Virus record (IMG/VR): IMGVR_UViG_3300045988_166195 | Coordinates: 32,001-96,000 of that record | DNA from: a virus | Reading direction: 5' to 3' (one strand) | DNA length: 64,000 nt | Shown here: positions 26,075 through 64,000 of the stretch, in pieces | Position numbering within the stretch: position 1 is the stretch's first letter | Layout: the number at the start of each line of letters is the position of its first letter | Notes under the pieces: generated by a model | The model's database searches: none | What the model was told of the DNA's origin: nothing | Seen by the model: the letters and a program-made list of their open reading frames with translations, nothing else | Made by a program: the position numbers and the translations under genes

Positions 26075-28414
26075 GTGTCGATACCGATGAGCTTGAAGCA
26101 GAGCATTGTTGTTGTCAACGAGTTCAGTGTGCCAACCCCAGGCTCGGGCAAGCATGGTGGTTCTCGTGGTGGCACACCCGGTGCTTACGTGATGCGCTAT
26201 ATGGCTCGTAAAGGCGCAACTGAGCCTGTGACGCCTATTCGTCGACGCAACACCGAGGATTTCATCCTGCGTTACATGGCACGAGAGAGCGCCACAGAAA
26301 AAGCCGTGTCGAGGCATCAGCTCAAAGACAACGTGCTGCATGTGTCCGGTCAAGGCGGCGTTGCATTCGGTTATGGTCAGCCGTCGTTGTCTGATGAAGG
26401 CGTGCGCCGTGCCAGTGCTGACATTCAGCGTTTGTTCGACAAGGGGCACACGGTGATGAAAACCGTGCTGTCTTTCAGCCCTGAGTATCTTCAGGAGACG
26501 GGCGTCGTCCCCAAGGGCTTCGTCGCACAGAACAAGGGCGATTACCGAGGTCATATCGACCAGATGCGTCTGCGTATGGCAATCATGCATGGTTTGGAGC
26601 GTATGGGGCATCGTTTTGATGACCTGCGCTACGTGGGCGTTATTCAGGTTGATACGTTGCATGTTCACTGCCACCTTGCCATGGTTGATGCTGGGCTCGG
26701 TCGACGTGTGCGTACAGAGAAGGGCATGCAACAGAAGGGTAAGCTCACCAGCACGGATATATCGCTCTTGCGACGCGGTGTTGACTCGTGGCTTGATGAG
26801 AACCAGCATGTGGCACACATGTCCAGTGCCGTGGGCTATGAGCGCATGAACGTTGCTGCGTTCGTGAAGCGTTGGGCTCATGAGAAGGTGCTCGATGAGT
26901 CACTACCCCAGTTGTTGTTGGCGTGTCTGCCTGCTGACAAGACGCTGTGGCGTTACGGGTCTCATCGACCGGAGATGCGACGTGCGAACAGTGTTGCGAC
27001 AGAGCTCGTCACTGAGTTGCTCGATCGCCTTGGTTCCCCCATGGGATCAGCCATGATCGCTGTGGAGACATATGCGAACCGTCGTGCTCATCGCGAAGGT
27101 CTGAGCGATCAGGAGAAACGAGCGTTGATTCGTCGTGGCCATGAGACGATTATGGAGCGCAGCGTCAATGGTCTGTACCAAGTGTTGCAATCTCTTCCAC
27201 CTGAGGCTCTTTCCGTGCGTACGCCGATGCTCACTGTGATGAGCCAGGATGTGGAGACGCTCATGGCAACGCAATCTCAGCGCATGAAGACCCAGGCTCA
27301 GGGTATGAGCGTTGATGATGATCTAGTGGGATTCTCACTGCGCCTTCGATCGTATGGAGCTCGTCTACGGGAACATGATACACAGCGTGAGTATTGGCGT
27401 ATGCGTGCTGCTGACTGGGAAGCCGGTCTTCAGGCAGGCGCAGTGTCCCCACAGTCCGAGGTGATGCACAAGCTGTATCTGGAGGAAGAGGAATACCACG
27501 CTCGTTGCGTCAGTAAGTACCGATCGTTGCTCGGGCCACTAGCGGTAGGTGTTGACGGGCAGCGTCAGGATGACGACTCGTGGAAAGACGTGTTGGAGTC
27601 GGTGGATAAGCGACGCGAAGCAGTCGTTGGTCTCGAAGCTCTGCTGGCAGATCGCTCGATTCCGAAGATGAAGGATGCTGATGAAGCTGAAAAGCTTGGT
27701 GTTGCTGCTCACGGCGTGAGCGGTGGACGCTTGCTGGTAGCTGGTGGGAAAGCTGGACGGACCACTTTGAAGCAACGCTTGGAGCGTGCTCGCGCATCGC
27801 TGGCTTCCCGAACAGCCGATCTTGTGTCGATGCTGTCCGGGAAAGGACTTGTATTGCAAGCGATACAAGACGATGCGCGCGAGGATGATCAAGGTAAGCA
27901 AAGCGATGCTGTCACCGTGGTTCCAGGGGAGCGATGGGCGTTGTCTCAGACGAAGGGTATGGATCTGCACGACGTGCGTTCCGATACTGTTGTCGACATG
28001 GCGCTTGGTCGCCATGTTGCCGATCGGTTCGTTACCTGGGCGCGCAGAAGGCGACAGCTTGTTGATGACGCTCAGGCGTATCTGCATGAGTCTGGTCAGG
28101 AAGACATTGTCGAGATGGTTCTTCCCCTCGATGATGTACGGCGTATGAATCGTGTTGCTGATGATCTGGAACGCCAGATGTCAGCGAAGAAGACCGGGGA
28201 TCTCATTCTCACGAGTGCTCTTAGTGATGTGGTGCCAGTAGCGAAACGTATTCGCCGTAGCGCAACAGTGACGTTTGATGAGGGTCTTGCCGGTATTGTT
28301 CGTGAGAACACATGGCGCGAGACTGAGCGTTTGGTGCCTCAACTGGAACAGGTGTTGGAAGAGAGCGACACGCAGTCTTCTGATGCCTCGATGGATTCCA
28401 TGGAATTGGGATGA
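26075..28414 (+). CDS. Conjugative relaxase (MOB family, MOBP/MOBQ-like histidine cluster) with a long C-terminal domain
   Basis: 3-His motif GVIQVDTLHVHCHLAMVD (compare the relaxase HxDxxxxHxHxH motif). N-terminal candidate catalytic Tyr motifs are duplicated: AYVMRYMARKGATE and FILRYMARESATE. It is positioned next to the coupling protein and the T4SS genes. The start could be ATG 26087. The 283-aa antisense ORF is a shadow. Confidence 0.55.
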   Translation: MSIPMSLKQSIVVVNEFSVPTPGSGKHGGSRGGTPGAYVMRYMARKGATEPVTPIRRRNTEDFILRYMARESATEKAVSRHQLKDNVLHVSGQGGVAFGYGQPSLSDEGVRRASADIQRLFDKGHTVMKTVLSFSPEYLQETGVVPKGFVAQNKGDYRGHIDQMRLRMAIMHGLERMGHRFDDLRYVGVIQVDTLHVHCHLAMVDAGLGRRVRTEKGMQQKGKLTSTDISLLRRGVDSWLDENQHVAHMSSAVGYERMNVAAFVKRWAHEKVLDESLPQLLLACLPADKTLWRYGSHRPEMRRANSVATELVTELLDRLGSPMGSAMIAVETYANRRAHREGLSDQEKRALIRRGHETIMERSVNGLYQVLQSLPPEALSVRTPMLTVMSQDVETLMATQSQRMKTQAQGMSVDDDLVGFSLRLRSYGARLREHDTQREYWRMRAADWEAGLQAGAVSPQSEVMHKLYLEEEEYHARCVSKYRSLLGPLAVGVDGQRQDDDSWKDVLESVDKRREAVVGLEALLADRSIPKMKDADEAEKLGVAAHGVSGGRLLVAGGKAGRTTLKQRLERARASLASRTADLVSMLSGKGLVLQAIQDDAREDDQGKQSDAVTVVPGERWALSQTKGMDLHDVRSDTVVDMALGRHVADRFVTWARRRRQLVDDAQAYLHESGQEDIVEMVLPLDDVRRMNRVADDLERQMSAKKTGDLILTSALSDVVPVAKRIRRSATVTFDEGLAGIVRENTWRETERLVPQLEQVLEESDTQSSDASMDSMELG

Positions 28415-29259: not shown

Positions 29260-32200
29260 TTGTTTGATGATGAGCGTTTGAACGATAAGTACCCGATGCT
29301 GCGAGACTTTGCGGCTAAGCTTGCGCCGCCTGCTCGTGACATTGTGGGGCGAGAGAGCGAGAAGATCTCGCTCATGAGCTCCCTGGCTCGTCCTGAGATG
29401 TGTAACGTGATCTTGCTGGCCCCGCCTGGCACCGGTAAAGCTCACCCGAATGATGAGTTGATCCCTGTTGCCGATGAGCGTGGATATGTCCGTGTTGGTT
29501 TGCTCAAGGTGGGCGATCGTGTCTTTGATGAGCACGGTGAGCCTGTGACCGTGACGGGTGTGTTTCCTCAGGGGATCAAGCGTGAGTACGTCGTGGTGAC
29601 GAACCATGGCGACCGTGTGCGCTGCAACGATGAGCACCTGTGGACGGTGCGATCGGTTGGTGATGCAGAAGGTGTGCAGCAAACGATGTCACTGCGTGAG
29701 ATCATGGACGCGGGACTTATTGGTTCCGATGGCGCACCCATCTGGCAGCTTCCTGCTTCTGGTGCGCTTGTGCGACAGAGCCGTCTTCTCCCGGTTGACC
29801 CTTATGTGTGTGGTGCGCTGCTGGGCTGGGGCGTTCGCATCGATGAGCGTGGGTACGTGACCATTCCTCATGAGATGCCCGATGAAGTTTTTGTTGCTAT
29901 CGAGGACCACATGGGGTGGGAGCGTGTGTATGGCAGTGGTGACAGTGTTGAGCGTTCGACGTTTATCAACCGTGCGACAGGTAAGCGTCTGACACCTGAT
30001 GAGGTGATGACTCATCCGGTGATGACGAGTGTCATCGTTAAGCCGGAGGATCAGCGTCATATTCCGTACACGTACATCACCAGCTCGGTGAAGGATCGAG
30101 AGACTGTGCTACGAGCGCTGCGAGACAGTGAGTCGTACCGTTTGTCCCAAGGGACTGCATGGGTTGTTGATGCTGATATGCATGAGCTAGAGCGTTCTCT
30201 CGATGTGACTGGCGATATGATCGCTGAGGTGATCGACACCGATCGCGAGATTGAGATGACGTGCATCATGGTCGACTCTGAGACACACCTGTATCAGGTG
30301 GGTCGAGGCCATGTTGTCACGCACAACACGGTGCTCGTGCAGTCCTGTATGCAAGATGATCCAGAGCGTATTTACCTGGAAGTCGACATGGCAAAGATGA
30401 TCGCTGACTTGTCGAACCCTGAAGAGATGGCTGCGCGCTTGAAGGCTCTGTTTGATGAGGCTGAGAGTTTTTCTAGGTCCGAAGGTCGAGAGATCGTGCT
30501 GTTCATCGACGAGTTCCACCAGGTGGTGCAGCTGTCTGCTGCTGCCGTGGAAGCGTTGAAGCCGTTGCTTGCTGCTTCTGGATCTCGGGGTATTAAGGTT
30601 ATCGCTGCGACCACGTATGACGAGTTCAACGCTCATATCGCATCGAATCTGCCGCTTGTTGAGCGTCTCGCGCGCATTAACATTCCTCAGACGAATCGTG
30701 AGGTGACGATCGCCATCCTGAAGGGTATGGCGAAGAAGTACGGTGTCGATGAGGGGATCTTTGATGATGCTCTGTATGAGCAGATCTTTGAGTACACGAA
30801 CAGGTACGTTCCTGCCTCTGTGCAGCCTCGTAAGTCGATCCGTGTGCTCGATGCCATGGTTGGTCGTCATCGGTATCTGGGCGAGCGTATGGACAAGACG
30901 CTGTTGGCAACCGTGCTGAAGATTGAGTTCGGTGTTGAAGTGGAGATCGATGTCAATGCTGCTGAGATCAAGGCTGAGCTGGATAAGCGAGTGTTTAGTC
31001 AGGACTTTGCCACCACGTCGATTGCTCGTCGACTCCAGTTGTGCGTCGCTGGTCTGAATGACCAGAGCAAGCCTATGTCATCGCTGTTGTTCACCGGAGC
31101 GACAGGTGTGGGCAAAGCCACCACAGATTCTACTCGTGTACCAGTCTTTTCTGAGGACGGTTCTGTGGCATGGAAACTTGCTGGTGACCTTGTTGCCGGT
31201 GACTACGTGTTTGCTCGCGATGGCTCTCCGACGAAGGTACTCGGGGTGTTCCCTCAGGGGGAACGCGACGTGTATCGAGTGACAATGGGGGATGGGCGCA
31301 TTCTTGATGTGTCTGACAATCATCTGTGGGCGGTTTACCCAAATCGGCAATCGCGTGAGCAAGGTCCAACAATCTATTCGACCGAAACTCTGATGAACAA
31401 GGGTATCGTGTCGAAGTTGAACAATGGTCGTCAGGGGATGAAGTATGTTGTTCCAATGAATAAGCCAGTTCAGTGGCCTACGGTTGATCTCCCTGTGGAT
31501 CCTTACGCACTTGGAGCTTTGATTGCCAATGGTTCGCTCACTGAGAAGGCGCTTGCCATCTCTTCGGATGATGAGGAAACGGTTGCTCGCGTTGGTCAAG
31601 CTATTGGTGCTGCGTCATGGGATCAGAATGGTAACAATTACTCTTGGTACTTCGGTACAGGAGAGGTATGGGGCGATGACATGAAGCGACGGATTCAGCT
31701 CGCGGATGTGTTTGTCGGTTCGCTTTCTGAACTGATTGGTGTGAAGTCGCCTCAGCGATTTATCCCTGAGCAGTATCTACATTCGTCAATCGAGCAGCGA
31801 TGGGCGTTGGTTCAAGGGTTGTTCGATTGCGATGGCTCGATTGGTGCGCGTGATGGTGGTCGTTACAACGTTTCGTATGCTACGGCTTCGAAGCGTTTGG
31901 CCGAGGATGTTCGCATTCTTCTGTTCTCCCTTGGGGTGCCGTGTTCCGTTAACCAGCATGTGCGCGAAAGGAACGGTAATACCCAGGTTGAGTATGAGGT
32001 TCATGTGAAGGCTCATAACTCGGATAAGCATCTCTTTTTCCGTCTCGATCGAAAGAAGAGCCTTGCCATCAAGGCTCAATCTGTGGCAAAACAGCGAGAG
32101 AAAAAGTTCGATTATGTCGGCATTCGTTCTATCGAAAAACTCGATACGAAAGAGAGCATGACGTGTATCTACGTCGACAATGACGAGCACCTGTATCAGG

Positions 32201-33033
32201 CTGGTGATTTCATCGTCACGCACAACACTGAGATCACTAAGCAGCTCGCAAAGATTCTTTTCGGTGACGATCAGCGTCACCTCATCCGTTTCGACATGTC
32301 GGAATGGGGCCGTGACGACAGCGTGGATCTGTTCCGTGAAGAGCTCTCGCGTCAAGTGTGGGCAACCAGCCATTGCGTGTTGCTCTTTGATGAGATCGAG
32401 AAGGCGTCCCCGCTTGTTGTGCGTTTGCTGCTTCAGGTGCTCGATGACGGTCGACTCTCGGATAAGGACGGGCGACAGGTGTCGTTCCTAAACACCTATA
32501 TCGTGTTGACGACAAACGCTGGTTCGGAGATCTACCGCACCATCGGTGAGTACAACGCTGATGATCACGGTAGTGAGGCCAGCATGCGTGAGTATGAGAA
32601 GGTCATCGAAGAGTCGATCAAGAGCACCGATGGTGGTAAGTTCCCACCTGAGCTCCTGGGACGTATTGATGCGATCGTGCCGTTCCAGCCGTTGTCGCGG
32701 CCTACGTTGCGCAAGATCATGATGAAGAAGTTGAGTGCTCTCAAGGCTGATGTGAAGCGTAAGCACGGTATCGATCTGACGATCGATAAGCGTGTTGTCG
32801 ACTTTCTGGTGGAAGACGAATCGCGTAGTGACTCTGATGCTGGTGGTGCACGTGACATGGTGCGTCGCATGCAGCGTTACCTTTCGACGGAAGTCGCAGC
32901 GTTCATCAATGAACATCCCGAGGAACGTGTGATCGCAGCCAAGATCGATGGCACGTTGCGTAGCGAAGATGTGACGATCTTGAAATCTGATGCTCGTGTG
33001 GTGGTCTTGCCATACGACAAGCCACGGGCTTAG
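29260..33033 (+). CDS. Clp/Hsp100-family double AAA+ ATPase (ClpA/B/C-like, no N-domain, short linker) interrupted by two inteins, one in each Walker A
   Basis: TTG start after GGAGGAAAG. D1 exteins: GRESEKISLMSSLARPEMCNVILLAPPGTGK | TVLVQSCMQD ... EIVLFIDEFHQV. D2 exteins: MSSLLFTGATGVGK | TEITKQLAKILFGDDQRHLIRFDMSEWG ... CVLLFDEIEKA. Both align to ClpB GEPGVGKTAIVEGLA and GPTGVGKTELAKALA contexts recalled from memory. The spliced extein is about 591 aa, close to the intein-free paralog at 58411-60285 (624 aa). Confidence 0.7.
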   Translation: MFDDERLNDKYPMLRDFAAKLAPPARDIVGRESEKISLMSSLARPEMCNVILLAPPGTGKAHPNDELIPVADERGYVRVGLLKVGDRVFDEHGEPVTVTGVFPQGIKREYVVVTNHGDRVRCNDEHLWTVRSVGDAEGVQQTMSLREIMDAGLIGSDGAPIWQLPASGALVRQSRLLPVDPYVCGALLGWGVRIDERGYVTIPHEMPDEVFVAIEDHMGWERVYGSGDSVERSTFINRATGKRLTPDEVMTHPVMTSVIVKPEDQRHIPYTYITSSVKDRETVLRALRDSESYRLSQGTAWVVDADMHELERSLDVTGDMIAEVIDTDREIEMTCIMVDSETHLYQVGRGHVVTHNTVLVQSCMQDDPERIYLEVDMAKMIADLSNPEEMAARLKALFDEAESFSRSEGREIVLFIDEFHQVVQLSAAAVEALKPLLAASGSRGIKVIAATTYDEFNAHIASNLPLVERLARINIPQTNREVTIAILKGMAKKYGVDEGIFDDALYEQIFEYTNRYVPASVQPRKSIRVLDAMVGRHRYLGERMDKTLLATVLKIEFGVEVEIDVNAAEIKAELDKRVFSQDFATTSIARRLQLCVAGLNDQSKPMSSLLFTGATGVGKATTDSTRVPVFSEDGSVAWKLAGDLVAGDYVFARDGSPTKVLGVFPQGERDVYRVTMGDGRILDVSDNHLWAVYPNRQSREQGPTIYSTETLMNKGIVSKLNNGRQGMKYVVPMNKPVQWPTVDLPVDPYALGALIANGSLTEKALAISSDDEETVARVGQAIGAASWDQNGNNYSWYFGTGEVWGDDMKRRIQLADVFVGSLSELIGVKSPQRFIPEQYLHSSIEQRWALVQGLFDCDGSIGARDGGRYNVSYATASKRLAEDVRILLFSLGVPCSVNQHVRERNGNTQVEYEVHVKAHNSDKHLFFRLDRKKSLAIKAQSVAKQREKKFDYVGIRSIEKLDTKESMTCIYVDNDEHLYQAGDFIVTHNTEITKQLAKILFGDDQRHLIRFDMSEWGRDDSVDLFREELSRQVWATSHCVLLFDEIEKASPLVVRLLLQVLDDGRLSDKDGRQVSFLNTYIVLTTNAGSEIYRTIGEYNADDHGSEASMREYEKVIEESIKSTDGGKFPPELLGRIDAIVPFQPLSRPTLRKIMMKKLSALKADVKRKHGIDLTIDKRVVDFLVEDESRSDSDAGGARDMVRRMQRYLSTEVAAFINEHPEERVIAAKIDGTLRSEDVTILKSDARVVVLPYDKPRA
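29440..30327 (+). mobile_element. Intein 1 (296 aa) in the D1 P-loop; Ala1 with a class 3-like Trp/Cys/Thr pattern; carries a LAGLIDADG homing-endonuclease domain
   Basis: Starts AHPNDELIPV (Ala1) right after GTGK. Block B: TNHGDRVRCNDEHLWTV (T..H and a conserved W). Blocks F/G: EMTCIMVDSETHLYQVGRGHVVTHN followed by +1 Thr. LAGLIDADG-like DPYVCGALLGWGV. The reconstituted P-loop reads GTGKT. Confidence 0.6.
31117..32226 (+). mobile_element. Intein 2 (370 aa) in the D2 P-loop; Ala1 with a class 3-like pattern; carries a LAGLIDADG homing-endonuclease domain
   Basis: Starts ATTDSTRVPVF after GVGK. Block B: SDNHLWAVY. LAGLIDADG motifs DPYALGALIANGS and LVQGLFDCDGSI. Blocks F/G: SMTCIYVDNDEHLYQAGDFIVTHN followed by +1 Thr. 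The reconstituted P-loop reads GVGKTEITKQLA. Confidence 0.6.
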
Positions 33034-35535: not shown

Positions 35536-35640
35536 TCTCTGCGCTTCTGTTTCTGATATGATTAGGTTGGTGAATCAACCAAATCGAAAAGATGCAAGAA
35601 AGACGTAAGAGACAGAAGAGAAAGGTGAAAGGTGGTGCAT

Positions 35641-38600
35641 ATGGCTTTCGGACGAAAGAAATCCGGTGGAGCAGCGCCTCGTGAACACGGTAGCCAAGCG
35701 TGGAACCAGTTGGGTAAGCAAGACGAGCTTGACTCGCTGGCCTATCAGGATGTGCACGGCGACCAGCAACTAGAACGTAGCGACATCGAGGCGAAGATCT
35801 CTCCGGTGTCGCGTGAGGTCGCATCGGCTGTTGCCGGTGTGCTTATCTTTATCCTCGTGTGGATGCTGTTCTCGTTCGGCACGATGGGTGTGGCCATGGG
35901 CCGTGACGCTCTGTGGCGTTCGTCTGTTCCGAGCTACGCGGTGCAGAACAAGGCTCTGACGAAGGAGCTGGGCAAGCCTGTGTGGAGCGAAGGGTGTTTC
36001 TCTCCAGCTCTCGAAACAGGTGAGATCGATACGTCCGATGAGACGTGCTATGAAGCTGCTGAGGATGTTCCTGAGCCACAGTGGCACGTGGATGCCGTTG
36101 CAGCAGAACAGGCTGAGCGCGATGTAGAACTAGCGGATCGCCCAAGCGGTGCGATGGGATGGATGCTGTCATTCGATTGGCTGAAGTTCATTGTGTCGTC
36201 GATCGCTGGTCTTGTCGTGTGGGGCTTGCTGCGTATGCGACTGATGCGCAACTTGAAGGCTCAGAACTTGATGCGGGATACGACCGACATCAACCAATAC
36301 AAAAACGACCAGCACGTGGCACTTCCTGAAGAAGTGCGTGAGCGTTTCGATGTGGTGCCTGACGTGGGCGCGCACACAGGTGTAAGTGCGACGACGCTCA
36401 TTTCCCACTCGATGGTCTCGAACAAGGGCATCAAGAAGGTGGCATTTGCGCAGCGAGCAACTGAGGACATTCTCGACGAGGATGGCGATGTGGCTCTGTT
36501 CGAGGGAGAAGCTCTCACGGACGATAACGGCGACGTTGTGACCAAGATGGTGCCGATGTTTGACGAAGAGTTTGGTACAGCTCTGTGGAACGCATCGGGG
36601 CTACCAGATAACAAGCAACTGCGTCGTCGTTTGGATCCTCGAAACGTGCCGTACAACCCAGGGAATGCCAACCGAGACAAGCTCAAGGGTTTCAACACCC
36701 TGGCTGATCTGGTGAACGGTGAGTGGGAACTTCCGATGTATGAGCCGCAGCGTCCTGCTGGCGTCTACTACGTGGATACGGCTCCTGCGAACACCATGAT
36801 CCTAGCTATGACTCGTGCTGGTAAGGGTCAGACGTACATTGAGCCGATGCTCGATATTTGGATGCGTCAGAAGCGCCCGGATAACATGGTGATCAACGAC
36901 CCCAAGGGCGAGCTCTTGGTGAAGAACTATGTTCGTGCCACCATGCGTGGTTTCCAGGTTGTGCAGTTCAACCTCATCAACGCCATGAAGACTGATATTT
37001 ACAACCCGCTTGGAATGGCTGCTGAGGCTGCACGCGAAGGTGATCAAACCAAGTGTGCTCTGTATGTCGAGAACATCGCAGATGTCTTCTTCCCTGTGGA
37101 TGGCGCGGAAGACCCTGTGTGGCCGAACGCTGCGAACAACGCGTTCAAGCGTGCGGCATACGGCCTCATCGATTACTACCTCGAAGAAGAACATCAGCTG
37201 CGTCAGTACGCGATGCGTCACGGTATGGATCAGAAGGTTCTGGAACAGAAACTCGATGCCATGTGGGGTAAGGTGACGCTCTACAACTGCTACCAGTTGT
37301 TCGTGCAGCTCACGAGTAAGAAGCGTAAGTCTCCGATGACTCAGGTGAACGAGCGCATTAAGAGTGGCTACTACGATCAGCAGTCGTCCGATCCTGATGA
37401 AGTCGACGCTCTGATCGAGCACGACAAGATGCAGGCTGAGCGTATTGAGTTCTTGTGGGAAGGTAAGCCGGAATCTGACTTGCTCACCTTGTTCTTCAAC
37501 GCCACTGAGGCGTTGCCTCAGTCGACGATGCGTACGTTGATCGCTAATGCGAACAACGCACTGCGTGCAATGGCTGGAGCTGAGAAGATGCTCGCATCTG
37601 TGTACGGTATTGCTATCACGGCAATGTCGTTCTTCACGGATCCGACGATCTCGACGTTGACCTCTGGTACTCCGTCACAGAACACGGATCTTGGCGGTCT
37701 GTCGTTCCCTCGTCGCTTCGGTGTGCGTTTCGCTCAGAACTTCACCAAGCGAGACGGTCTCATCGGTGCTCAGGCGAAGTGGGATGCGTTCGATGATCCC
37801 GAGTTGAAGCACAACCTGGGTAAGGATTTCGAGCACGAAGACACAGTGGTGCGAGAAGGATGGGCTCGTTATTACTTCGACGGTAAGTTCCCACATGACG
37901 TTGCCTACTTGCGACTGCGTTTGTTCAACCCCCAGACGGGTGTGTTGCTCAAAACGTTCTACTTCCAGTTCACGAAGGGTTACCAGCTCTCGTTGAATGG
38001 TCGTAAGTTCGTCAAGGATCCGATCACGGGTAACAAAATCATCCGTAATGGCGTTCTCGTGGAGATGGTGAAGGGTAAGAACGGGGTTCTTGTTTCTGGT
38101 CACCTGAGTTATCCGGCAACACGTCTGTTGGATAAGGCGGGGAGCCTCAAGACTGTACGAGAGGATGTCCCTGCGATTATCCTGTCGTCGGTTCGTTATT
38201 CGGAGCAGCCGAAGGCTGTGTTCCTGGTGACGCCACCTCACTTGATGAAGTACGCGAAGCTCGTACTGATTCTTGTGAAGCAGTTGGTGGATCTGAACTT
38301 CGATAAGTCGTACATGACGAAGGCGAACCAGAAGCCGCTCTACAAGACGCGCTTCATGCTCGACGAGCTCGGCAACTTGCAGTCCGAGGGTCACGGTATC
38401 TCGGGATTTGAGACCATGCTCTCCATTGGTCTGGGTCAGGAGCAGCAATTCACGCTGATTCTTCAGACGTTGCAGCAGGCTCGTGACGTTTACGGGGACA
38501 GCGTAGACAAGATCATTCAGGGAAACGTTGCCAATATCGTCTTCTTGAAGTCGACGGATGACACGATGATTGAGACGTTGGCCAAGATGTCCGGTACTCG

Positions 38601-39687
38601 CCACCGTGCGGTGCGAGACTCTAAGACGGTGACTCAGGATACTGAGCGTCTCATCGAAGGTCTGAACGTTGAGGGCAAAGTGTCGTACACGATCAGCGCG
38701 AAGGAAGAAAGTGTCATTGGGTACAACGATCTGGCATTCTTGCCGGAACGTAACTCGATCATCTTTTCGGCAGGCATCTCGCCTATCTGGAACCGCAATG
38801 CGGAGATTCTTCCTATGTCGTGGCGCTTGTTCAGCAACACGATCAAGCATCCGGGCCGCGAGTACTCACTTCAGACGATTCCGACTCTCTCGTCGGCGCT
38901 TGATTTCGATGTGCGTCTTAACCAGCCGAACTTCATGAAGATGCTGGATAAGCGCATCGAGCAAGCCGCGAATGCGGCTGAGGCGATGGAGTTGTACCAG
39001 GAGGCATACGATCTGGATGATTATGGCATCTCGATCCTGGATCCCGATGTGTACTCGGCTGAGGTCATGGATCTCATTGCCTCGATCGAGGAAGAGCGCA
39101 GGGGCCACGACATGGAGAACGAAGAGTACGACATGGACAGTGACGAGGCTCTACGTGCTCAGTTGGGATCTGGCTACGATATGTTCAACGAGGCTGACGA
39201 GATTAACGAAGATGTCCGCGAGGATCTTGCTGCTCGTCAGGAGATGTTGGCCGATCGAGCGAAGATGCGCTACGCGGAAGGTCAGATCAGCCGTGAGCAT
39301 CTGATGAGTGAGAGTGGACAGGTGTTGCACCATCTCGATGGTGACATCGTTGCTGCGTATCGTGAAGCGAAGCACGCAATGGTGGATGACGTTCGGTTCT
39401 TCCGAACAGACGAGAACGGTTCGCTGTGCTCGCTGGATGGAAAGGTCTACATCAGCCAGGGTGTGTCGAGCGATGAGCTGCGTACTCTCCAAACCGCATC
39501 GTCCGATGAGACGAGCGGTGTGTATGCGGATGATGAGTCGATCTCTGAGATCGCGGACCTGGGTTCGTGGCGAGTCCATGATGCGTTCTATAGGTTCTTG
39601 CACGGCCTGGAGTCGTGGGAGGATCTCGGCGGAGGCACTTTCGATCGCGCTATTGCACGAGTGTTCGAACGTCGAGAGAACGAGTGA
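35641..39687 (+). CDS. Type IV coupling protein (VirD4/TraG family) with a long C-terminal extension
   Basis: Two N-terminal TM helices (VAGVLIFILVWMLFSFGTMGV and FIVSSIAGLVVWGLLRM). TraG/VirD4 P-loop region MILAMTRAGKGQTYIEPMLDIWMRQKRPDNMVINDPKGEL (compare APTRSGKGVG...DPKGE). Walker B-like RFMLDELGNL. About 1350 aa. The C-terminal roughly 450 aa are acidic and not assignable. The start could be GTG 35632. Confidence 0.7.
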   Translation: MAFGRKKSGGAAPREHGSQAWNQLGKQDELDSLAYQDVHGDQQLERSDIEAKISPVSREVASAVAGVLIFILVWMLFSFGTMGVAMGRDALWRSSVPSYAVQNKALTKELGKPVWSEGCFSPALETGEIDTSDETCYEAAEDVPEPQWHVDAVAAEQAERDVELADRPSGAMGWMLSFDWLKFIVSSIAGLVVWGLLRMRLMRNLKAQNLMRDTTDINQYKNDQHVALPEEVRERFDVVPDVGAHTGVSATTLISHSMVSNKGIKKVAFAQRATEDILDEDGDVALFEGEALTDDNGDVVTKMVPMFDEEFGTALWNASGLPDNKQLRRRLDPRNVPYNPGNANRDKLKGFNTLADLVNGEWELPMYEPQRPAGVYYVDTAPANTMILAMTRAGKGQTYIEPMLDIWMRQKRPDNMVINDPKGELLVKNYVRATMRGFQVVQFNLINAMKTDIYNPLGMAAEAAREGDQTKCALYVENIADVFFPVDGAEDPVWPNAANNAFKRAAYGLIDYYLEEEHQLRQYAMRHGMDQKVLEQKLDAMWGKVTLYNCYQLFVQLTSKKRKSPMTQVNERIKSGYYDQQSSDPDEVDALIEHDKMQAERIEFLWEGKPESDLLTLFFNATEALPQSTMRTLIANANNALRAMAGAEKMLASVYGIAITAMSFFTDPTISTLTSGTPSQNTDLGGLSFPRRFGVRFAQNFTKRDGLIGAQAKWDAFDDPELKHNLGKDFEHEDTVVREGWARYYFDGKFPHDVAYLRLRLFNPQTGVLLKTFYFQFTKGYQLSLNGRKFVKDPITGNKIIRNGVLVEMVKGKNGVLVSGHLSYPATRLLDKAGSLKTVREDVPAIILSSVRYSEQPKAVFLVTPPHLMKYAKLVLILVKQLVDLNFDKSYMTKANQKPLYKTRFMLDELGNLQSEGHGISGFETMLSIGLGQEQQFTLILQTLQQARDVYGDSVDKIIQGNVANIVFLKSTDDTMIETLAKMSGTRHRAVRDSKTVTQDTERLIEGLNVEGKVSYTISAKEESVIGYNDLAFLPERNSIIFSAGISPIWNRNAEILPMSWRLFSNTIKHPGREYSLQTIPTLSSALDFDVRLNQPNFMKMLDKRIEQAANAAEAMELYQEAYDLDDYGISILDPDVYSAEVMDLIASIEEERRGHDMENEEYDMDSDEALRAQLGSGYDMFNEADEINEDVREDLAARQEMLADRAKMRYAEGQISREHLMSESGQVLHHLDGDIVAAYREAKHAMVDDVRFFRTDENGSLCSLDGKVYISQGVSSDELRTLQTASSDETSGVYADDESISEIADLGSWRVHDAFYRFLHGLESWEDLGGGTFDRAIARVFERRENE

Positions 39688-40400: not shown

Positions 40401-40580
40401 GGCGGTTCTCCTGATTCTATTAGGGGTTGTTTGTATTATTCAGTGTATCATAAATAGTCGGTTATATGTATGCGGGTTCCCTTGTGTTTCCAGTCGAAAT
40501 GCGGGTTTTTGTCGGGTAGAATGGAGGGCGTAATACCCGATCGATCCAGTGGATCGAAACTCCAGGAAGGAGAATGCGTT

Positions 40581-43500
40581 ATGCAAACGCGCAATGCCGG
40601 ACTCCGGCGTTACATGTACGAGCATATGATCGCTCGCACAATCAATCGAACCTCGGAGATCACGAAGACTCCGATTCTTGTATCTCAGGGTCGACGCCTG
40701 AGGGATCTCATGGAAGAGCGTCTCAATGAACAGGGTCGTTCTTTCAACGATGGTGATCTACCTGTTACCGATGCGCTGGATGCTATCCAGAGCATCATGG
40801 AAGAGCATGTTCCCGGATACAAGCCTTTGTTCCAGCCTGCCGATACATCGAGTAAGGGCTACAAGGTTCTATATGAAGAGTTCAGGAACATGGTCGGTCT
40901 GAATGGCTCTGCTGGCGCGGCTGGTCCGCGTCTGCCGATTTCTCCGTATGATCCCCGGTGGGGGAGCCGTCGCACTGTGAAGCAGGCTGGGACCTCTATC
41001 CTGTACGTGCTCGATGGCGACATCGCCGCATACGCAGACGGTAAGCCAAGCAACATCGAGAAAGCGACGACCTCAGAACTTACTCTGTACCGCTTGACTG
41101 ATGAAGGGAAGGCCAAAGAGGCAGGCCGCGCTCTCAGCCTTGATGATGTCTCGGGTCTCACCGAGCTCATGGGTCGCATGTCGACGGCTGAGTACAACGA
41201 GGTTCGTCAGTGGGTGCTGGACGGTGCTCGCAACCCTGAAACGGGGCGCTACAACGCCCGTCAGTTCATGAGCACTGATGCATTGGCTCGTTCCCGAGCT
41301 GTGCTGGACATGCTCGCAGAAGAGGGCATTCCGTACACGATCGAGAAGGATCTTCGCCCTGGTCAGATCCGTGCGCGTTTGACGGGTACGAATATGACGG
41401 TGCGCCTGACTGACACCCGAGACAAAGAGCAGTGGGTGGGTCGTGTCTACGACAACGGTGCAACTCTGTACTTCTCCACGACGGCTCGTCGAGACAACAA
41501 GCAGGTGGCCTACACGCCAACTGTTGACGAGGTGTGCGACCTCGTGCGTGTTGCGCTGGGTCGACCAGTGGAGCGCAAGGATGGTAAGGGCCTCGTGGGC
41601 CGAGTGGGCGAGCGTCAGACCAGCAAGGGTAAGACGGTTCAAGAGTCGTATCTCTCCACTGGAACACTGACGAGTGCGTACAAGGACATGCCCGGTATGA
41701 ACGGTGAGCAGATCGTGATTCGTCGTCAGATGAAGGAGCGTTCTGCGTCTTCGCGGTTCTTTGCCGATACGCCCGAAGGTCGTGAACAGGCATCCGGTTT
41801 CATTACCGGTGCTGTGCACAGCGCTCGTCACAATGTGATTGAGCAGCTCGATGTCGATGGTCTGATCCAGCAGTTCCGCGATCACGAGGATGCTGCCCGT
41901 GAGGGTACGTACATCCCTATGCTGTCTGGTGATCCTGATCTTGCGGCGGTTGGCCGCGCGTACTGGGATGTGCTTCGTGGCGCTGAGACAACTCTGCTGA
42001 AGCCTGAGGCTACGCGAGCTGAGTACGCTGAGGCGACGGGTCTGCTTGACGACATGGATCAAGAGAGCGATCTGTCGGGCGTTCACGACATGCTGGCCGG
42101 TTCCGTGGCGTACACGGGTACCCCGGAAGAACGTGTTCGTGCGCATCTTCGGGATCTTCTCGATACCCAGATCGGTATCGATGAGCCTATCGACTCTGAT
42201 GACTTCGTGTTCGATCCAGTGCGCGTTGCTCGTTACATGACGAGTGAACACGGCCAGTGGCGTAACAACGATGATCTCGTGGCTGCTATGCGCAGCGTTG
42301 GTATGCCTCAGGAGAAGATCGTCGGGGAGTCGTTCTATTCCAACACGTTCCGCGATCGACTGATCACCTTCGATGAGTCCACGGCTTTGCCGATGGAGAC
42401 GGTCGAAGATGAGTTCACTCAGTCGATGCTTCAGGTTGTGTCTGACACGCTGGAGTCCTGCGCTGTGACGCCTGGTTCTATCCGCGTCGACGCCAACGGC
42501 GTTGTGGAGTGGACGGGCTCCATCATGCGCTCGCAGACAGGTAAGGAAGAGCCCGTGAGCGGTACGATCGGACAGATCTTTGCTCGCGGTGAGAACGGTG
42601 AGATCATCACACGGTTCAATTCCGGTAACGATCTGATGATCGTGCCTGGTTTTGACGCACGTGTGGTGGCACAGAAGCCTGGAGAGAACAAGTCCCTCGA
42701 AGAGCGCACCCGGCTGATCGGTTACGAGCAGCAGATGAGTGACGCGATTCGATACCGAGTTCAGGCTGATGTGCTCTCAGGTCGTTCTCGTGTGGGTGAA
42801 CCCGCCTCGTTGAACAGTGTGTACCGTCGTCTGTCGGATACGCGCCATCGCGCGGATCACTACGAGCGCGCTCTCGAAGAGGGTATGGATCGGAAGATCC
42901 TTGATGCCATTCTTGCTACCGAAGCGCGTCGTGTGCGTTACCCGAACGCTTTGCGTGATGGGTCGACGATCGACGCTGACTTCCGTGCATCTCGTGCTCG
43001 GGAACAGGGTATTGGTGGCGATCCGGCCAACGACACGACCATGGATCCGTGGGTGTTGACCGGCGGTCGCAACATGTCGTTGCTCAGCGAAGAAGCCGAT
43101 GGCTACTTCGATCCGATCATGACATCGGGCGGTGTGAACCAGGGCGTGACTCGTTATCTGGTGTCCGGTGCGCAGGTGAATCCTGATGGATCGATCGTAC
43201 GTTCTGATAAGAACGACCGTGCACCGCTGATGTTGACTGAGCAGGCTCAGCTCATGAGCTACGATCCGTTCGATCGTCAGCAGATGACGACTTCTAATCT
43301 CATGAACGCATCGTCTGTGACGAAGCCTGTGGGCACGGCGTTCATGACTGCTGGTGGTTGGACGATGGAGGACTCCATCGTTGTCTCGGCTGACTTTGCC
43401 AAGCAGTACCGCGTTCGCGGCACTGACGGTCAGATGCGCGATCTCATCGTTGGTGACAAGATCTCCGATATGCACGGCAACAAGGGTGTTATCTCGCTCA

Positions 43501-58410: not shown

Positions 58411-60285
58411 TTAGTTGTTCGCAGCAGAGAGTAGAGAGTCTTCGATGAAGCCTCGAATAGCTCGAACAGCGGGGCGCGCGCCTTGGTCTTTCAGGTATGT
58501 CTCTGCCACCAATCGATCGATGGTGTCATCGTCGATGGGATCGAAGCTCATACCTGGGTTCTCAGCGCAGATTCGTGCAACTTGGCGATCGTATTCATCA
58601 CGCAGAATCTCTGCGTATTCGCTGGTCCCTAGCGGCATGAATGCGATGAGGTCATCAAACCGGCCAAGTAGTTCCGCATCAAAGCTATTCTGTAGCTCAT
58701 TGGTGAGCGATTGCTTTGAAATACTCTGCGTATGGTTACCAAACCCCATCTGGGATCCAGAGAGCTTCTGCCTGCCAGCATTCGTTGTTGCGATGACAAT
58801 GCAACGAGACATGTCGACGGCGGGGCCGTTGGCCATCTGGATTTCGCCAGTATCGAGTGCGGAGAGGAACAGTCGCTGTACCGACATGTGTGCCTTCTCG
58901 AACTCATCCAGAACGATGACTCGATAGGGGTTCGATACCAAGGTATCGAACGGGCGCTCTCGTGCACTCTCAGAGCCAACATAGCCAGAGGGGGAACCAA
59001 TGATCCGGTTGATCGTGTGCGCATCGTGGAACTCTGCCATGTTGAGCAGGATGGGTTCCTGTCCTGTGACCATCTGGGAGATGATCTTGGCAGTCTCGGA
59101 CTTGCCCACGCCGGATGCCCCAGCGAAAAGCCACGACGTTGGTCGCGTTTGGGGGAAGATGTTCAGCTCGCGCCTGCGTAGTGCGTCAACGAGACGCGGA
59201 AGCACGTCCTCCTGGCCCTTCAACCTGGAGAGTTCACTCTCCAGAGTCTCGACATCAAGCTGCGGCGGCTGTGACTGGCCGGTCACAAGCAGCATGGCGA
59301 TCGTGTTGAGACGCTTGGAGGTCAGCGGGATCTGGGTGATCTGCTGAAGCATCTGCGCATACGAGGTGTTGCCAGAGGCGAGTGCTTCCTGGATCGCAGC
59401 GTGATGGCTGATCACGCTGTGGCTGAGAGCTCGATCGAGCAATGTGATGGCAGTATCGGGGCGATGCCCGGTACTCATGAGACGATCAGCGGTAGCAACG
59501 ATGTCATCGAGGACATCAGATGCAACGCTGACCTTGTTCTGGTAGTGCGTGAGCATGTCGGGTAGAACGACATCGAGAATCGAGCGAGTCTGCTCTCGGT
59601 TAAGCTCATCGACGATGACAGACGAGAAGCGACGCTTGAATGCCGGATCATCGTCAAGACGCTTTGCCTCACCCATCGTCGTTGCTGCGATGACACGTAG
59701 GTATCCTCGGGCCAACGCAGGCTTGAGGATTTGTGCAATCTTGCTGTAGGTGGGATTGCTGTCATCAGCAATGATGTGGATCTCATCAATGAAGAGCAGT
59801 GCGTCATTATCTGGATCCTGAGCGAACTTGATAATGTCGGTGATGCGGTTCTCTAGCTCACCGACGATGCCAGCGCCAGCGACAAGCGTGGCGATCGGCA
59901 GCTCATAGATGGTGGTGTTTTTGAGCTGCGGAGGCACGGATGCCTCCTGGTTGGCGATGCGCCTGGCAATCTCTTCGACGATGGCGGTTTTGCCAACACC
60001 TGCTGGACCAACAAGAAGCGCGTTCGGCTTACGCGACGACGAAATGATGCTCATCGTCTGAGTGACGATCTCGTCACGGAAGAGCGCCGGAGAGGACTTC
60101 TTGTGTTCTTCGTTGTAGTTGATGAGCATGTCATCAATCTCGGAGCCACCGGTAATGGTGTGATTGTGCGATGGCGCAGACGGGCCAACGCTGACGATGT
60201 TGGGTGCACCAGAGCCAACGCCTGATCCGGTTGGGTTGTTGGTGCTGTCGTCATCGTTACCGGGCGTGAAGTTGGACAGGCCCAT
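58411..60285 (-). CDS. Clp/Hsp100-family double AAA+ ATPase, intein-free paralog of 29260-33033
   Basis: D1: ALLVGPAGVGKTAIVEEIARRIA, Walker B ALLFIDEIHII. D2: WLFAGASGVGKSETAKIISQMV, Walker B RVIVLDEFEKAH. No Clp N-domain. Gly/Ser-rich N-terminus. GGAGG Shine-Dalgarno (aaaaaaggaggcacgccTATGgg on the minus strand). Confidence 0.65.
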   Translation of the reverse strand: MGLSNFTPGNDDDSTNNPTGSGVGSGAPNIVSVGPSAPSHNHTITGGSEIDDMLINYNEEHKKSSPALFRDEIVTQTMSIISSSRKPNALLVGPAGVGKTAIVEEIARRIANQEASVPPQLKNTTIYELPIATLVAGAGIVGELENRITDIIKFAQDPDNDALLFIDEIHIIADDSNPTYSKIAQILKPALARGYLRVIAATTMGEAKRLDDDPAFKRRFSSVIVDELNREQTRSILDVVLPDMLTHYQNKVSVASDVLDDIVATADRLMSTGHRPDTAITLLDRALSHSVISHHAAIQEALASGNTSYAQMLQQITQIPLTSKRLNTIAMLLVTGQSQPPQLDVETLESELSRLKGQEDVLPRLVDALRRRELNIFPQTRPTSWLFAGASGVGKSETAKIISQMVTGQEPILLNMAEFHDAHTINRIIGSPSGYVGSESARERPFDTLVSNPYRVIVLDEFEKAHMSVQRLFLSALDTGEIQMANGPAVDMSRCIVIATTNAGRQKLSGSQMGFGNHTQSISKQSLTNELQNSFDAELLGRFDDLIAFMPLGTSEYAEILRDEYDRQVARICAENPGMSFDPIDDDTIDRLVAETYLKDQGARPAVRAIRGFIEDSLLSAANN

Positions 60286-60396: not shown

Positions 60397-62097
60397 TCAC
60401 TTGGTCATGCCGAGGATACGAGAGCCCGTGGTGGGATCGATCGTCTTCATGTGGTGAGTGAAATCTATAGCGCTTTGGCGCAAAAATTCGTACCAGTTAT
60501 CCGGGACAGAGATCGGCACATAGTACAGATTCTCAGGCACGTCGATGTGGTACGAGCCAGGCCACCATTCGAAGTCGGTGATCACCAGGTTAAGTCGACG
60601 CTTGAACGGAGGATTCTCGTTAATGAGCTTGTAGATCTGCTCATAGTCCGTACCACCGCTCACCTTAGGCACGGCAGCAAACTGCTTCCACACCTGGGTG
60701 ATGGAACGGTCCTTGATACGAAGACGCACAGGCGTTGGCATGACGTGCGAGAAACTCGTGAAGTACAGATCCACGCCCATTCGCTTGGCAAACTGAATGA
60801 GCATCTTGATCGTATCCTCGTAGTTCTCGGTGGAGATAGACCCGGAGGTATCCAGGTAGATGTGGATGTCCGGCATATACTTGCGAGACACAATCTTGCC
60901 TGGCTTGTTCGGATCGTTAGGCTGACGCCTGTTCGCTCGAACAAAGCTCGTGCTGACATTCCTGATGGAATTGAGCGACTGGTTGACCTTAGACATGCGC
61001 GTGAGGACACGCATGACCGACTTGTAAATGTCAACCGGTCGTGTGGGTCGCTTGCGGAACACAACGCGACCGCTACGGCCCGCTTGGTGCTGTGCGTTGG
61101 ACAAGCTGTTGGCAGCTTGCGCGGACGCCTTTTGCTGGGCGCGAGCGAGCGCAGTGAGCTTGCTGAGCTGACCGGGCGTGACAAGTTTGACCGGGTTGTG
61201 GAGGGACTTCATGATGAGATCCCACTCAGCGTTGATCTTGCGCATCGACGCCCTGGCATGAGCCTCGACATTGATGAGGACCAACGTACGAGGCAGTGCC
61301 AACTCAGCGATGCTGAAGGGCAGCATGCCGCACGTTTCAGGCGCACCAGGCTGGCTTGGCTGCTGCATGTGGGTCCACGTACTGAGAGCCCACATGAGGA
61401 TACGTGCGAATGAGTACTCGTTGAGAGCCTGTGAATCATTTGCTCGCAGAATGAGAGACTCAGTGAGGCCGCTGAGGTCGATCTTGTCAAACTGCTGGAA
61501 CATCCGGTTATCAGCCGGGGTGATGTTCGATGAGATCTTGGCGAGTTCGCCGCGTAGCCACGTCTTGAAGCTGTCGAATTCTGCATCCGTACGGAACCAG
61601 AAGCCGACAGTGTGCGGGTGGAAAGTCCATCCCAAAGACACCAGCAGGAGATCCGTACCGGCATTGCCAGCAAGAACATCCTTGGCCGTAGGCATCACGT
61701 CGCTCTGCGTGGTGTACAGAGCCTTGCTGGGATCAGGCAGCTTACAACGCGCTGCTGCTTGGGTGATGAACACTTCGTCGACAGGCGATGATGCGGACGG
61801 AATCCATCGAACAAGGGACTGTTCGAAGATCACGCGCATGGTGGCCTGCGCGTCTGCGTCGAGAACCTCGCCAACGGCGCGAAGGAGCAGATCGTTGACT
61901 CCATCAGAGTCAACATCGCGTCCGTCGATCGTCAGATCGACATTACCGCCTGGGGTAAGCGGCTCGAAGACGGTCTGCGTGATCATCGTGTCGAGCGTGA
62001 CGAGGGGTTCGCAATCACCCGTGAAAGGGGCGATAGGAACATACTGGTCGATATGATTGGGCTTTTGCCCGGTTAGGGTAATGGATGGAGAAGCCAT
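60397..62097 (-). CDS. von Willebrand factor A (vWA/MIDAS) domain protein, partner of the adjacent MoxR-like ATPase
   Basis: C-terminal vWA with MIDAS DxSGS (MPDIHIYLDTSGSISTENYEDTIKML) and a downstream T/D (VSGGTDYEQIY ... LVITDFEW). The large N-terminal region is unassigned. The 339-aa plus-strand ORF inside is a shadow. Confidence 0.6.
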   Translation of the reverse strand: MASPSITLTGQKPNHIDQYVPIAPFTGDCEPLVTLDTMITQTVFEPLTPGGNVDLTIDGRDVDSDGVNDLLLRAVGEVLDADAQATMRVIFEQSLVRWIPSASSPVDEVFITQAAARCKLPDPSKALYTTQSDVMPTAKDVLAGNAGTDLLLVSLGWTFHPHTVGFWFRTDAEFDSFKTWLRGELAKISSNITPADNRMFQQFDKIDLSGLTESLILRANDSQALNEYSFARILMWALSTWTHMQQPSQPGAPETCGMLPFSIAELALPRTLVLINVEAHARASMRKINAEWDLIMKSLHNPVKLVTPGQLSKLTALARAQQKASAQAANSLSNAQHQAGRSGRVVFRKRPTRPVDIYKSVMRVLTRMSKVNQSLNSIRNVSTSFVRANRRQPNDPNKPGKIVSRKYMPDIHIYLDTSGSISTENYEDTIKMLIQFAKRMGVDLYFTSFSHVMPTPVRLRIKDRSITQVWKQFAAVPKVSGGTDYEQIYKLINENPPFKRRLNLVITDFEWWPGSYHIDVPENLYYVPISVPDNWYEFLRQSAIDFTHHMKTIDPTTGSRILGMTK

Positions 62098-62198
62098 CGG
62101 TGCCCCTTTCTTGAAAACGGGGGATAAAGCTATATGTGGTCGTGTCCGGCGTAGCCGAAGGAGAATGAAGCGCTACGCCGGACACGATGCTTGTGAAC

Positions 62199-63449: not shown

Positions 63450-63635
63450 ATTTCCTCCTGAATAAAATTGGTTGAATAAAGTCATGGAGTCAGACCGCGC
63501 CGTGAGGCGGTCTGACTCTCTATTTCTTGTCTCGGGTCGTACTTTGTACGACCGTCCATAACTCTCCCGAAAACCCTGGTGTTCCAGTAGAATGGATACA
63601 TAGCACTGGACATACATAGGAGAGGTGAGAGAGTT

Positions 63636-64000
63636 ATGCGGGGTTCGCATCATATTGTTGCCGGGTTGGCGATGCTTGGTATCGGGCGTGCTGCCATCTT
63701 GATGGGCGAGAGTGCCGATCGTTCCCAGGTGATACCGTTGATGGATACAGAGTCGATAGAGGATAGCTACGGGGTTATCGGCTCTGTTCGCTCGTGGGTA
63801 TCGGATGGTTTGGATGCACTAGGTGGATCCATCGCATCATGGAGTACGTGGATTCATCATCTGTTTGTGAGCGATGATGAGTACTGGTACATCAGCGTCG
63901 CAATTGGTATGCCGTTGTTTATCATCGGCACTTTGCTGGCTGATGCTGATCTGCCGCACTCATTGATGGGGCGTTTCATGCCATGGGGGACAATATGGCG
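63636..64000 (+). CDS. Hypothetical membrane protein, N-terminal part only (possible YdjM-like membrane-bound hydrolase); continues past the window end
   Basis: ATG 63636 after AGGAGAGGTGAGAG. MRGSHHIVAGLAMLGIGRAA ... ISVAIGMPLFIIGTLLADADLPHS. The frame is open to the window edge. Confidence 0.35.
   Translation, partial: MRGSHHIVAGLAMLGIGRAAILMGESADRSQVIPLMDTESIEDSYGVIGSVRSWVSDGLDALGGSIASWSTWIHHLFVSDDEYWYISVAIGMPLFIIGTLLADADLPHSLMGRFMPWGTIW

Follow-up and report, generated by a model that had tools for sequence, protein, structure and literature searches.

How can a functional ATPase be encoded by a gene in which both nucleotide-binding loops are interrupted, and how are two insertions at equivalent positions of one chain related to each other? 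These questions are raised by a locus in a stretch of 64,000 nucleotides (positions 32,001 to 96,000 of the IMG/VR virus record IMGVR_UViG_3300045988_166195), which is referred to as a whole as the window and to which the coordinates below refer. An open reading frame (ORF) at 29260..33033 on the plus strand codes for an atypical Clp/Hsp100-like ATPase with two AAA+ modules, D1 and D2, on an element that at best guess is an actinobacterial conjugative plasmid of ~120 kb. A preliminary description, made from the sequence of the window alone, had proposed that the Walker A loops of both modules carry inteins of class 3. The computational analysis reported here makes it very probable that each Walker A loop of this Clp-like plasmid ATPase is indeed split by a class 3 intein, and that the two inteins represent separate site-specific lineages at different stages of homing.

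Two split Walker A loops in one reading frame

The ORF begins with a TTG start codon, which is preceded by a GGAGGA ribosome-binding site, and specifies 1257 amino acids plus a stop codon. In this precursor of 140.7 kDa, Pfam recognizes the domains AAA, AAA_lid_9, AAA_2 and ClpB_D2-small, together with LAGLIDADG_3 and Hom_end at residues 835-920. The N-extein (residues 1-60; 29260..29439, plus strand, as for all features of this gene) ends in the D1 Walker A sequence PPGTGK and is followed by intein 1 (residues 61-356, 296 residues; 29440..30327), whose junctions read PPGTGK/AHPNDE…GHVVTHN/TVLVQ, slashes marking the splice sites. The middle extein (residues 357-619; 30328..31116) extends from the +1 Thr of intein 1 to GATGVGK, the Walker A sequence of D2, and the Walker B motif of D1, LFIDEFH (30499-30519), lies within it. 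After GATGVGK, intein 2 is inserted (residues 620-989, 370 residues; 31117..32226) with the junctions GATGVGK/ATTDST…DFIVTHN/TEITKQ. The C-extein (residues 990-1257; 32227..33030) has the +1 Thr of intein 2 as its first residue and comprises the D2 Walker B motif LLFDEIEKA (32380-32406) and the ClpB_D2-small domain.

Both insertions split Walker A between Lys and Thr, as GTGK/A…THN/T in D1 and GVGK/A…THN/T in D2. The translation bears out the earlier claim that two Walker A loops of one ATPase are cut after GK by insertions that start with Ala, and every motif that had been quoted in its support (EHLW and NHLW, MTCIMV and MTCIYV, HN/T) was found in it. When both insertions are removed in silico, an extein of 591 residues with two intact GKT P-loops is obtained; its computed mass of 66.3 kDa agrees with the ~66 kDa that had been expected.

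Class 3 signatures of both inteins

Class 3 inteins have no nucleophile at position 1 and are characterized by Trp B:12, Cys F:4 and Thr G:5, the WCT triplet, and by Thr or Ser at position +1 (PMC2807308; PMC5050341). All these features are found in both inteins, which share Ala1, His B:10, Trp B:12, Cys F:4, Thr G:5, a terminal His-Asn and Thr+1. In intein 1, block B contains EHLW with His66 and Trp68 (29626-29643), block F reads MTCIMVD with Cys275 at F:4 (within 30253-30276) and block G consists of Thr294-His295-Asn296, followed by Thr+1. The corresponding elements of intein 2 are NHLW with His69 and Trp71 (31312-31329), MTCIYVD with Cys350 at F:4 (within 32155-32178) and Thr368-His369-Asn370, again followed by Thr+1. 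The W-C-T pattern had already been recognized in the preliminary description, but its T had been equated with the +1 Thr. In block G, the penultimate His is G:6, the terminal Asn G:7 and the +1 residue G:8, so that the Thr of the triplet is G:5, the first residue of T-H-N (PMC2807308, PMC5050341). Both threonines are present, and the occurrence of Thr G:5 in the two inteins strengthens the class 3 assignment.

An alignment of both inteins with ten relatives revealed that the His, the Trp, the Cys and the Thr-His-Asn are invariant. The best sequence matches of solved structure are MchDnaB1 (6rix, 6riy), Msm DnaBi1 (6bs8) and a gp41-1 intein with a grafted WCT triplet (6riz), the identity of these entries being taken from PMC7664689. 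The counterpart of EHLW and NHLW is HQW in both Msm DnaBi1 and MchDnaB1, MTCIMVD and MTCIYVD align to VRCVEVD of 6bs8 and 6rix, and the THN residues are aligned as well. With the signature residues complete and class 3 DnaB inteins as the closest solved relatives, the proposed class 3 identity is supported for both inteins. Profile hidden Markov models of class 3 inteins matched only these two in a six-frame translation of the window; no match was obtained in the 1351-residue coupling protein or in the UvrD helicase.

Predicted splicing of the precursor

A splicing pathway can be proposed from the homology with the DnaB intein of mycobacteriophage Bethlehem and with Msm DnaBi1 and MchDnaB1. 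In class 3 inteins, Cys F:4 is the obligate nucleophile; their splicing passes through a branched thioester at block F and is lost when this Cys is mutated. With His-x-Trp of block B and Thr of block G as activating residues, Cys275 of intein 1 and Cys350 of intein 2, both in block F, would attack the peptide bond preceding Ala1. The N-extein would be transferred to the +1 Thr, the terminal Asn would cyclize and the exteins would be joined. Completion of both reactions would restore the two GKT P-loops in a 66-kDa ATPase. It is reasonable to infer that the ATPase is functional only after double splicing and that the unspliced protein is inactive.

Splicing of the class 3 intein DnaBi1 of Mycobacterium smegmatis is reportedly sensitive to oxidation, zinc and reactive chlorine. 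By analogy, the two inteins might act as a double post-translational gate, with both P-loops restored solely under conditions that keep the block F cysteines reduced and metal-free. Such a gate is rather unlikely; if it existed, plasmid transfer functions would be tied to the redox conditions in the host.

Intein 1 and the question of decay

Each of the two inteins had been credited with a LAGLIDADG endonuclease. This applies to intein 2 as far as the presence of a full-length domain, with an Asn in motif 1, is concerned, but not to intein 1, in which only a remnant is left and the Pfam scan gave no endonuclease match. The degenerate LAGLIDADG traces of intein 1 lie at 29797-29835 (…LLGWGV) and 30097-30135 (…LRDSES). 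In an alignment with relatives, motif 1 corresponds to LLGWGV, where Trp replaces Asp, and motif 2 to ALRDSES. About 85 alignment columns are missing from the second endonuclease subdomain, in which an AlphaFold model of intein 1 (predicted local distance difference test score 84.8, predicted template modelling score 0.78) retains helices only. The model matches PI-SceI-type intein-endonucleases and class 3 DnaB mini-inteins with template modelling scores of 0.77-0.86, normalized to the target. In an active monomer with two motifs, both LAGLIDADG helices would end in a catalytic Asp or Glu and the αββαββα subdomains would be complete. Judged from these data, the intein 1 endonuclease is a truncated and degenerate remnant and no intact enzyme.

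Loss of the endonuclease might be part of a more general decay, in which one or both insertions are dead inteins and the gene is a pseudogene whose function is covered by an intein-free Clp-like paralogue at 58411-60285. The degenerate domain of intein 1 and the existence of the paralogue are in line with this explanation, and a class 3-like intein shown to be a pseudogene, Arth_1007, provides a precedent (PMC3196547). Unlike Arth_1007, however, both inteins possess the block F Cys, and their catalytic residues are all conserved. The 3.77-kb ORF is uninterrupted in the window and in the 135 other close variants examined, every one of which contains intein 1. Splicing blocks and exteins are both under strong purifying selection, judging by the ratio of nonsynonymous to synonymous substitution rates (dN/dS), which lies at 0.09-0.16 for the former and at 0.02 for the latter. 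For intein 1 as a whole, dN/dS amounts to 0.14, with 0.09 in the N-terminal splicing region and a span of 0.09-0.18 over its parts. The middle region of this intein evolves fastest: its alignment has 31% invariant columns, whereas the splicing blocks reach 47-54% and the exteins 67-78%. Moreover, with no more than 23% identity to the extein, the paralogue does not represent a redundant copy. Decay to a pseudogene is therefore quite improbable. Occurrence in 135 out of 135 homologues, a decayed endonuclease and purifying selection rather fit a fixed intein that is kept only because splicing is required. A word-indexed homologue search with intein 1 returned no more than 4 matches.

Empty alleles and the probable homing stage of intein 2

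The preliminary description had suggested a search for relatives with empty insertion sites. Such relatives exist, and all four states of occupancy occur among them. An allele of this kind is found on L081, a syntenic metagenomic contig of ~93% nucleotide identity, in which intein 1 is present and intein 2 absent. The L081 gene equals the gene of the window minus exactly 1110 nucleotides, and GKT is intact at its D2 site, which reads …ACAGGTACAGGCAAA/ACGGAGGTCACCAAG… with the slash at the insertion point of intein 2. The boundary of intein 2 is fixed by this empty allele. In relatives, empty sites read GK-T or, less often, GK-S. All 120 of the 120 nearest homologues (94-99% extein identity) likewise contain intein 1 and have an empty D2 site. 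The exact 1257-residue protein also occurs in public metagenomes, where it is grouped at 90% identity with other double-intein proteins, 47 members in all, on contigs of ~117-126 kb.

Filled and empty D2 alleles are interleaved in extein divergence; their exteins differ from that of the window by 9-25 and 9-15 residues, respectively. Intein 2 occurs on at least two different backgrounds of P-loop flanks, and its presence is polymorphic among alleles that are ~98% identical in the extein. The G+C content at third codon positions (GC3) is 0.52 in intein 2, 0.58 in intein 1 and 0.63 in the extein. Interleaved alleles, multiple flanks and a low GC3 fit a recent and still mobile intein, and we infer that intein 2 is a minority allele of this kind. 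Its LAGLIDADG domain is of full length (Pfam LAGLIDADG_3, residues 847-910 of the precursor, E = 7e-11), with motif 1 as LGALIANGS (31498-31536) and a canonical motif 2, GLFDCDGS (31798-31839). Taken together, intein 1 would have become fixed in the plasmid clade while its endonuclease decayed, and intein 2 would be a later, polymorphic arrival in which the domain has been retained.

Separate lineages at the two sites

The distribution of the inteins in the ATPase family was assessed by an exhaustive HMMER search with the spliced extein, from which the 150 best-scoring cluster representatives (clusters at 50% identity) were taken. The state of D1 and of D2 could be read in 140 of these; a subfamily was defined by at least 45% identity and consists of 77 clusters. 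Neither site is filled in 66 of the 140 representatives and in 12 of the 77 subfamily clusters. D1 alone is occupied in 19 and 18, D2 alone in 27 and 19, and both sites in 28 and 28, respectively. At least one intein is thus present in 65 subfamily clusters (84%). Filling of D1 and of D2 is independent within the subfamily (odds ratio 0.98, Fisher p = 1.0). The two inteins in one gene had been described as an unusual homing configuration, a view that does not hold in the light of 28 doubly occupied clusters out of 77 and of the Lys/Thr insertion in P-loops that Kelley et al. call "classic" (PMC5050341). All 104 inteins extracted from the family have the block F Cys, and 94 of them the complete W-C-T plus His-Asn. 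Their first residue is mostly Ala, but Leu, Gly, Gln, Met, Asp, Phe, Pro, Asn and Arg are also found, and occasionally Ser, Cys or Thr.

Inteins 1 and 2 are homologous (27% identity overall, E = 2e-15) and occupy equivalent GK/T positions, so one might be a recent intragenic copy of the other that arose by an ectopic jump between paralogous P-loops. The sequences argue against such an origin. In the splicing core, defined as the first 105 plus the last 48 residues, the two inteins are 33% identical to each other, whereas for each of them the closest intein at its own site in a different cluster reaches ~73%. Intein 2 is closer to P-loop inteins of the PhoH type (39-45%) than to intein 1, and the independent filling of D1 and D2 also speaks against copying within the gene. 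The nearest neighbour resides at the same site for 45 of 49 D1 inteins and for 53 of 57 D2 inteins, and neighbour-joining trees consist of large, mostly site-pure clades. Jumps of this type are nevertheless suggested elsewhere in the family by P0279, a D2-site intein that groups with the D1 lineage in 91% of the neighbour-joining bootstrap replicates, and by a nine-member D2 subclade next to the D1 clade, which has a support of only 33-46%; the candidates for a site switch other than P0279 are equivocal (33-62% bootstrap). Such switches probably happened at some point in the family. For the pair in the window a recent intragenic copy is highly improbable, and the two inteins are, by these comparisons, separate site-specific lineages. 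It is conceivable, though rather unlikely, that the family with its four states of occupancy and occasional D1-to-D2 switches preserves the history of inteins that moved from one paralogous P-loop to another inside a single gene.

Beyond the Clp-like family, intein 2 has relatives of 35-45% identity at the GK/T site of PhoH, AAA_33, TerL, DnaB and RecD-like P-loop nucleoside triphosphatases, a setting in which class 3 inteins are known to reside, and nearly all of their junctions read GK/A…IVTHN/T. A second lineage at the D1 site, of the form GK/LLPL.TPI…CADHQW…GKCIQVD…VPTHN/T, was observed in P0262, P0264, P0266, P0271, P0311, P0312 and at 9001-13296 of contig L082. It resembles the mycobacterial DnaBi1 in its HQW and PTHN motifs. 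This distinct lineage indicates that the D1 site was probably invaded more than once.

Objections to the proposed interpretation

A class 1 or a class 2 (KlbA-like) splicing route can practically be dismissed: although Ala1 is common to class 2 inteins and to both inteins studied here, class 1 requires Cys, Ser or Thr at this position and is excluded by the Ala, and class 2, in which the WCT triplet is missing and splicing relies on the usual Thr and His of block B (PMC2807308), is excluded by the full triplet and Thr+1 of both inteins, whose best matches are class 3 structures.

Several points weigh against the preferred interpretation of two class 3 inteins at different homing stages. The splicing of both inteins and its class 3 route are predicted, as is the endonuclease activity of intein 2. 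Motif 1 of this endonuclease (IANGS) has Asn where most relatives, such as PhoH and TerL inteins, have the catalytic Asp (GDG), and the enzyme may perhaps be a nickase or inactive. In that case, intein 2 could spread by recombination between plasmids instead of by its own homing. The Asn variant recurs in diverged D2-site inteins, including the one from a Streptomyces plasmid, and the change may therefore be a trait of the lineage and not a result of random decay.

A second difficulty concerns the age of intein 1. In the one pair of sequences compared, the window and L081, synonymous divergence (dS) is 0.19 in intein 1 compared to 0.35 in the exteins, which is a poor fit to a simple scenario of an old and immobile intein. 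In other words, intein 1 (29440-30327) and its counterpart at 10181-11068 of L081 differ at synonymous sites about half as much as the exteins on either side. This one pair suggests that intein 1 may have been exchanged between plasmid lineages after the exteins had diverged, despite its degenerate endonuclease.

Finally, the extein is devoid of the canonical pore loops of Hsp100 proteins. The KYR motif is absent from the D1 pore loop, which reads ADLSNPEEMAARLK with ADLSNPEE in place of KYR, and the GYVG loop of D2 is deleted relative to ClpB of T. thermophilus.

The mature ATPase and its paralogue

After splicing in silico, the extein retains the D2-small domain and a pair of AAA+ modules in which Walker A and Walker B are present. 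It aligns to residues 186-716 of ClpA and also to ClpB, ClpC and ClpV. Its scores against the NCBIfam models stay far below all equivalog cut-offs, as for ClpB (260 versus 1232 bits), ClpA (256 versus 993) and ClpV (228 versus 885). In a comparison with Hsp100 proteins, no N-domain, no M-domain and no IGF/IGL tripeptide for ClpP docking could be found in the extein. By its sequence, the mature protein is an atypical Clp-like ATPase in which the canonical substrate-threading elements are missing. ClpI, a recently named actinobacterial class of Clp proteins, was considered and rejected as an assignment: ClpI has N- and M-domains, and its paper mentions no inteins. A search of GTDB genome contigs with the C-extein yielded only generic ClpB-like matches of at most 38% identity.

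The intein-free paralogue announced in the preliminary description does exist at 58411..60285 (minus strand); its 624 residues make up a Clp-like ATPase with two AAA+ modules, whose Walker A loops are both intact. Similarity to the extein is low (E = 5e-25 at the identity given above), and GYVG is retained. The paralogue adjoins a MoxR-like AAA_5 ATPase (62199-63653, minus strand) and a protein of 566 residues without a Pfam match (60397-62097, minus strand), and a second, minus-strand ATPase gene cluster spans the paralogue and the region 60397-63653.

Relation to known inteins and ATPases

The nearest known systems are the class 3 DnaB inteins, such as those of mycobacteriophage Bethlehem DnaB, M. 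smegmatis DnaBi1 (6bs8) and M. chimaera DnaB1 (6rix). They share with the inteins described here the missing N-terminal nucleophile, the WCT triplet, the terminal His-Asn and Thr or Ser at +1, and they likewise interrupt Walker A in a P-loop ATPase that forms hexamers. Their host, however, is a replicative helicase of the RecA fold, whereas the present host is a Clp/Hsp100-like AAA+ ATPase. Identity is low and the splicing blocks alone can be aligned; furthermore, the solved DnaB proteins are mini-inteins, whereas the inteins of the window carry an endonuclease or its remnant. With the inteins of PhoH, TerL (TerL1-a), AAA_33 kinases and RecD-like proteins, intein 2 has the GK/A…IVTHN/T junctions and the LAGLIDADG architecture in common. 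These inteins reside in other host genes and have mostly GDG, in contrast to the D2 lineage of the Clp-like family, in which ANG or GNG occurs repeatedly.

A requirement for two independent splicing events in one ATPase chain, one of them class 3 at the P-loop, is also met with in DnaB of M. smegmatis, which carries the class 3 P-loop intein DnaBi1 and the class 1 intein DnaBi2 (PMC6195587). In the protein described here, by contrast, both inteins are of class 3 and are placed at equivalent positions of two paralogous modules. ClpA, ClpB, ClpC and ClpV resemble the extein in their tandem AAA+ modules, the Walker A and B motifs, AAA_lid_9 and ClpB_D2-small. The extein differs from them in the absence of an N-domain, an M-domain, KYR, GYVG and the ClpP-docking tripeptide, and it is encoded in a plasmid module together with a relaxase and a coupling protein.

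Class 3 splicing, the Lys/Thr site in P-loops and multiple inteins per protein are all already known. Since class 3 inteins and Lys/Thr insertions are well established, no new mechanism is implied. It is the host that appears to be new, a Clp-like two-module ATPase of an actinobacterial plasmid transfer module in which both Walker A loops are heavily colonized. A literature search turned up no paper that reports inteins from this plasmid module or from ATPases of the Clp/Hsp100-like kind, an earlier catalogue entry being possible. The natural series of empty, single and double alleles is suited to studies of homing, endonuclease decay and site specificity, and the family is a source of diverse class 3 inteins with varied first residues for protein engineering. 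It also calls for caution in annotation, as double-intein ATPases are hidden under names such as 'AAA family ATPase' or 'DNA packaging protein'.

The conjugative element

The gene lies in a conserved transfer module. A relaxase of the MobL family is encoded upstream (26075..28414, plus strand; PF18555, E = 1e-62) and a type IV coupling protein of 1351 residues downstream (35632..39687, plus strand), which agrees with the conjugative setting that had been assumed from the sequence. The window also codes for a topoisomerase III-like protein and a cell-wall hydrolase. Nucleotide searches with the ORF at 29260..33033 against plasmid and phage collections gave no match, and a look-up of contigs that encode the exact protein returned none. 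At the protein level, an orthologue of 58% identity with two class 3 inteins is present on a complete plasmid of 639 kb from Streptomyces sp. NBC_01454, where RefSeq labels it only 'AAA family ATPase'. The gene order conserved on this plasmid is lysozyme, MobL, a small ORF, the Clp-like ATPase, a protein of ~700 residues, the coupling protein and a protein of ~1850 residues. On the Gordonia plasmid pGKT2, the order is conserved from MobL through the large protein, and the orthologue (54% identical) contains no intein.

One member of the 90% cluster to which the protein of the window belongs, P0130 (NCBI DAV25941.1), bears the name 'DNA packaging protein [Caudoviricetes sp.]'. The inteins alone match intein-containing 'terminase large subunit' families of PHROG (phrog_19299, E = 6e-47), and because of this resemblance to intein-containing terminases the name is probably an artefact. 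The viral classification of this plasmid-like element is possibly an intein artefact as well.

The coupling protein is unusually long, and its recognizable TraG/TrwB region is confined to approximately residues 860-1050; the length is kept on related plasmids (~1350-1410 residues). Just downstream of it, a protein of 1853 residues (40470-46031, plus strand) combines both signatures of two-barrel (multisubunit-type) RNA polymerases in one chain. These are the β-like VGDKISDMHGNKGVIS (Pfam Rpb2_6, E = 5e-7) and the β'-like FDGDFDGD, which resembles NADFDGD (Pfam Rpb1_2, E = 1e-6). This protein may be a fused single-subunit RNA polymerase of the conjugation module, and on both the Streptomyces and the Gordonia plasmid the corresponding place is taken by a large 'hypothetical protein'.

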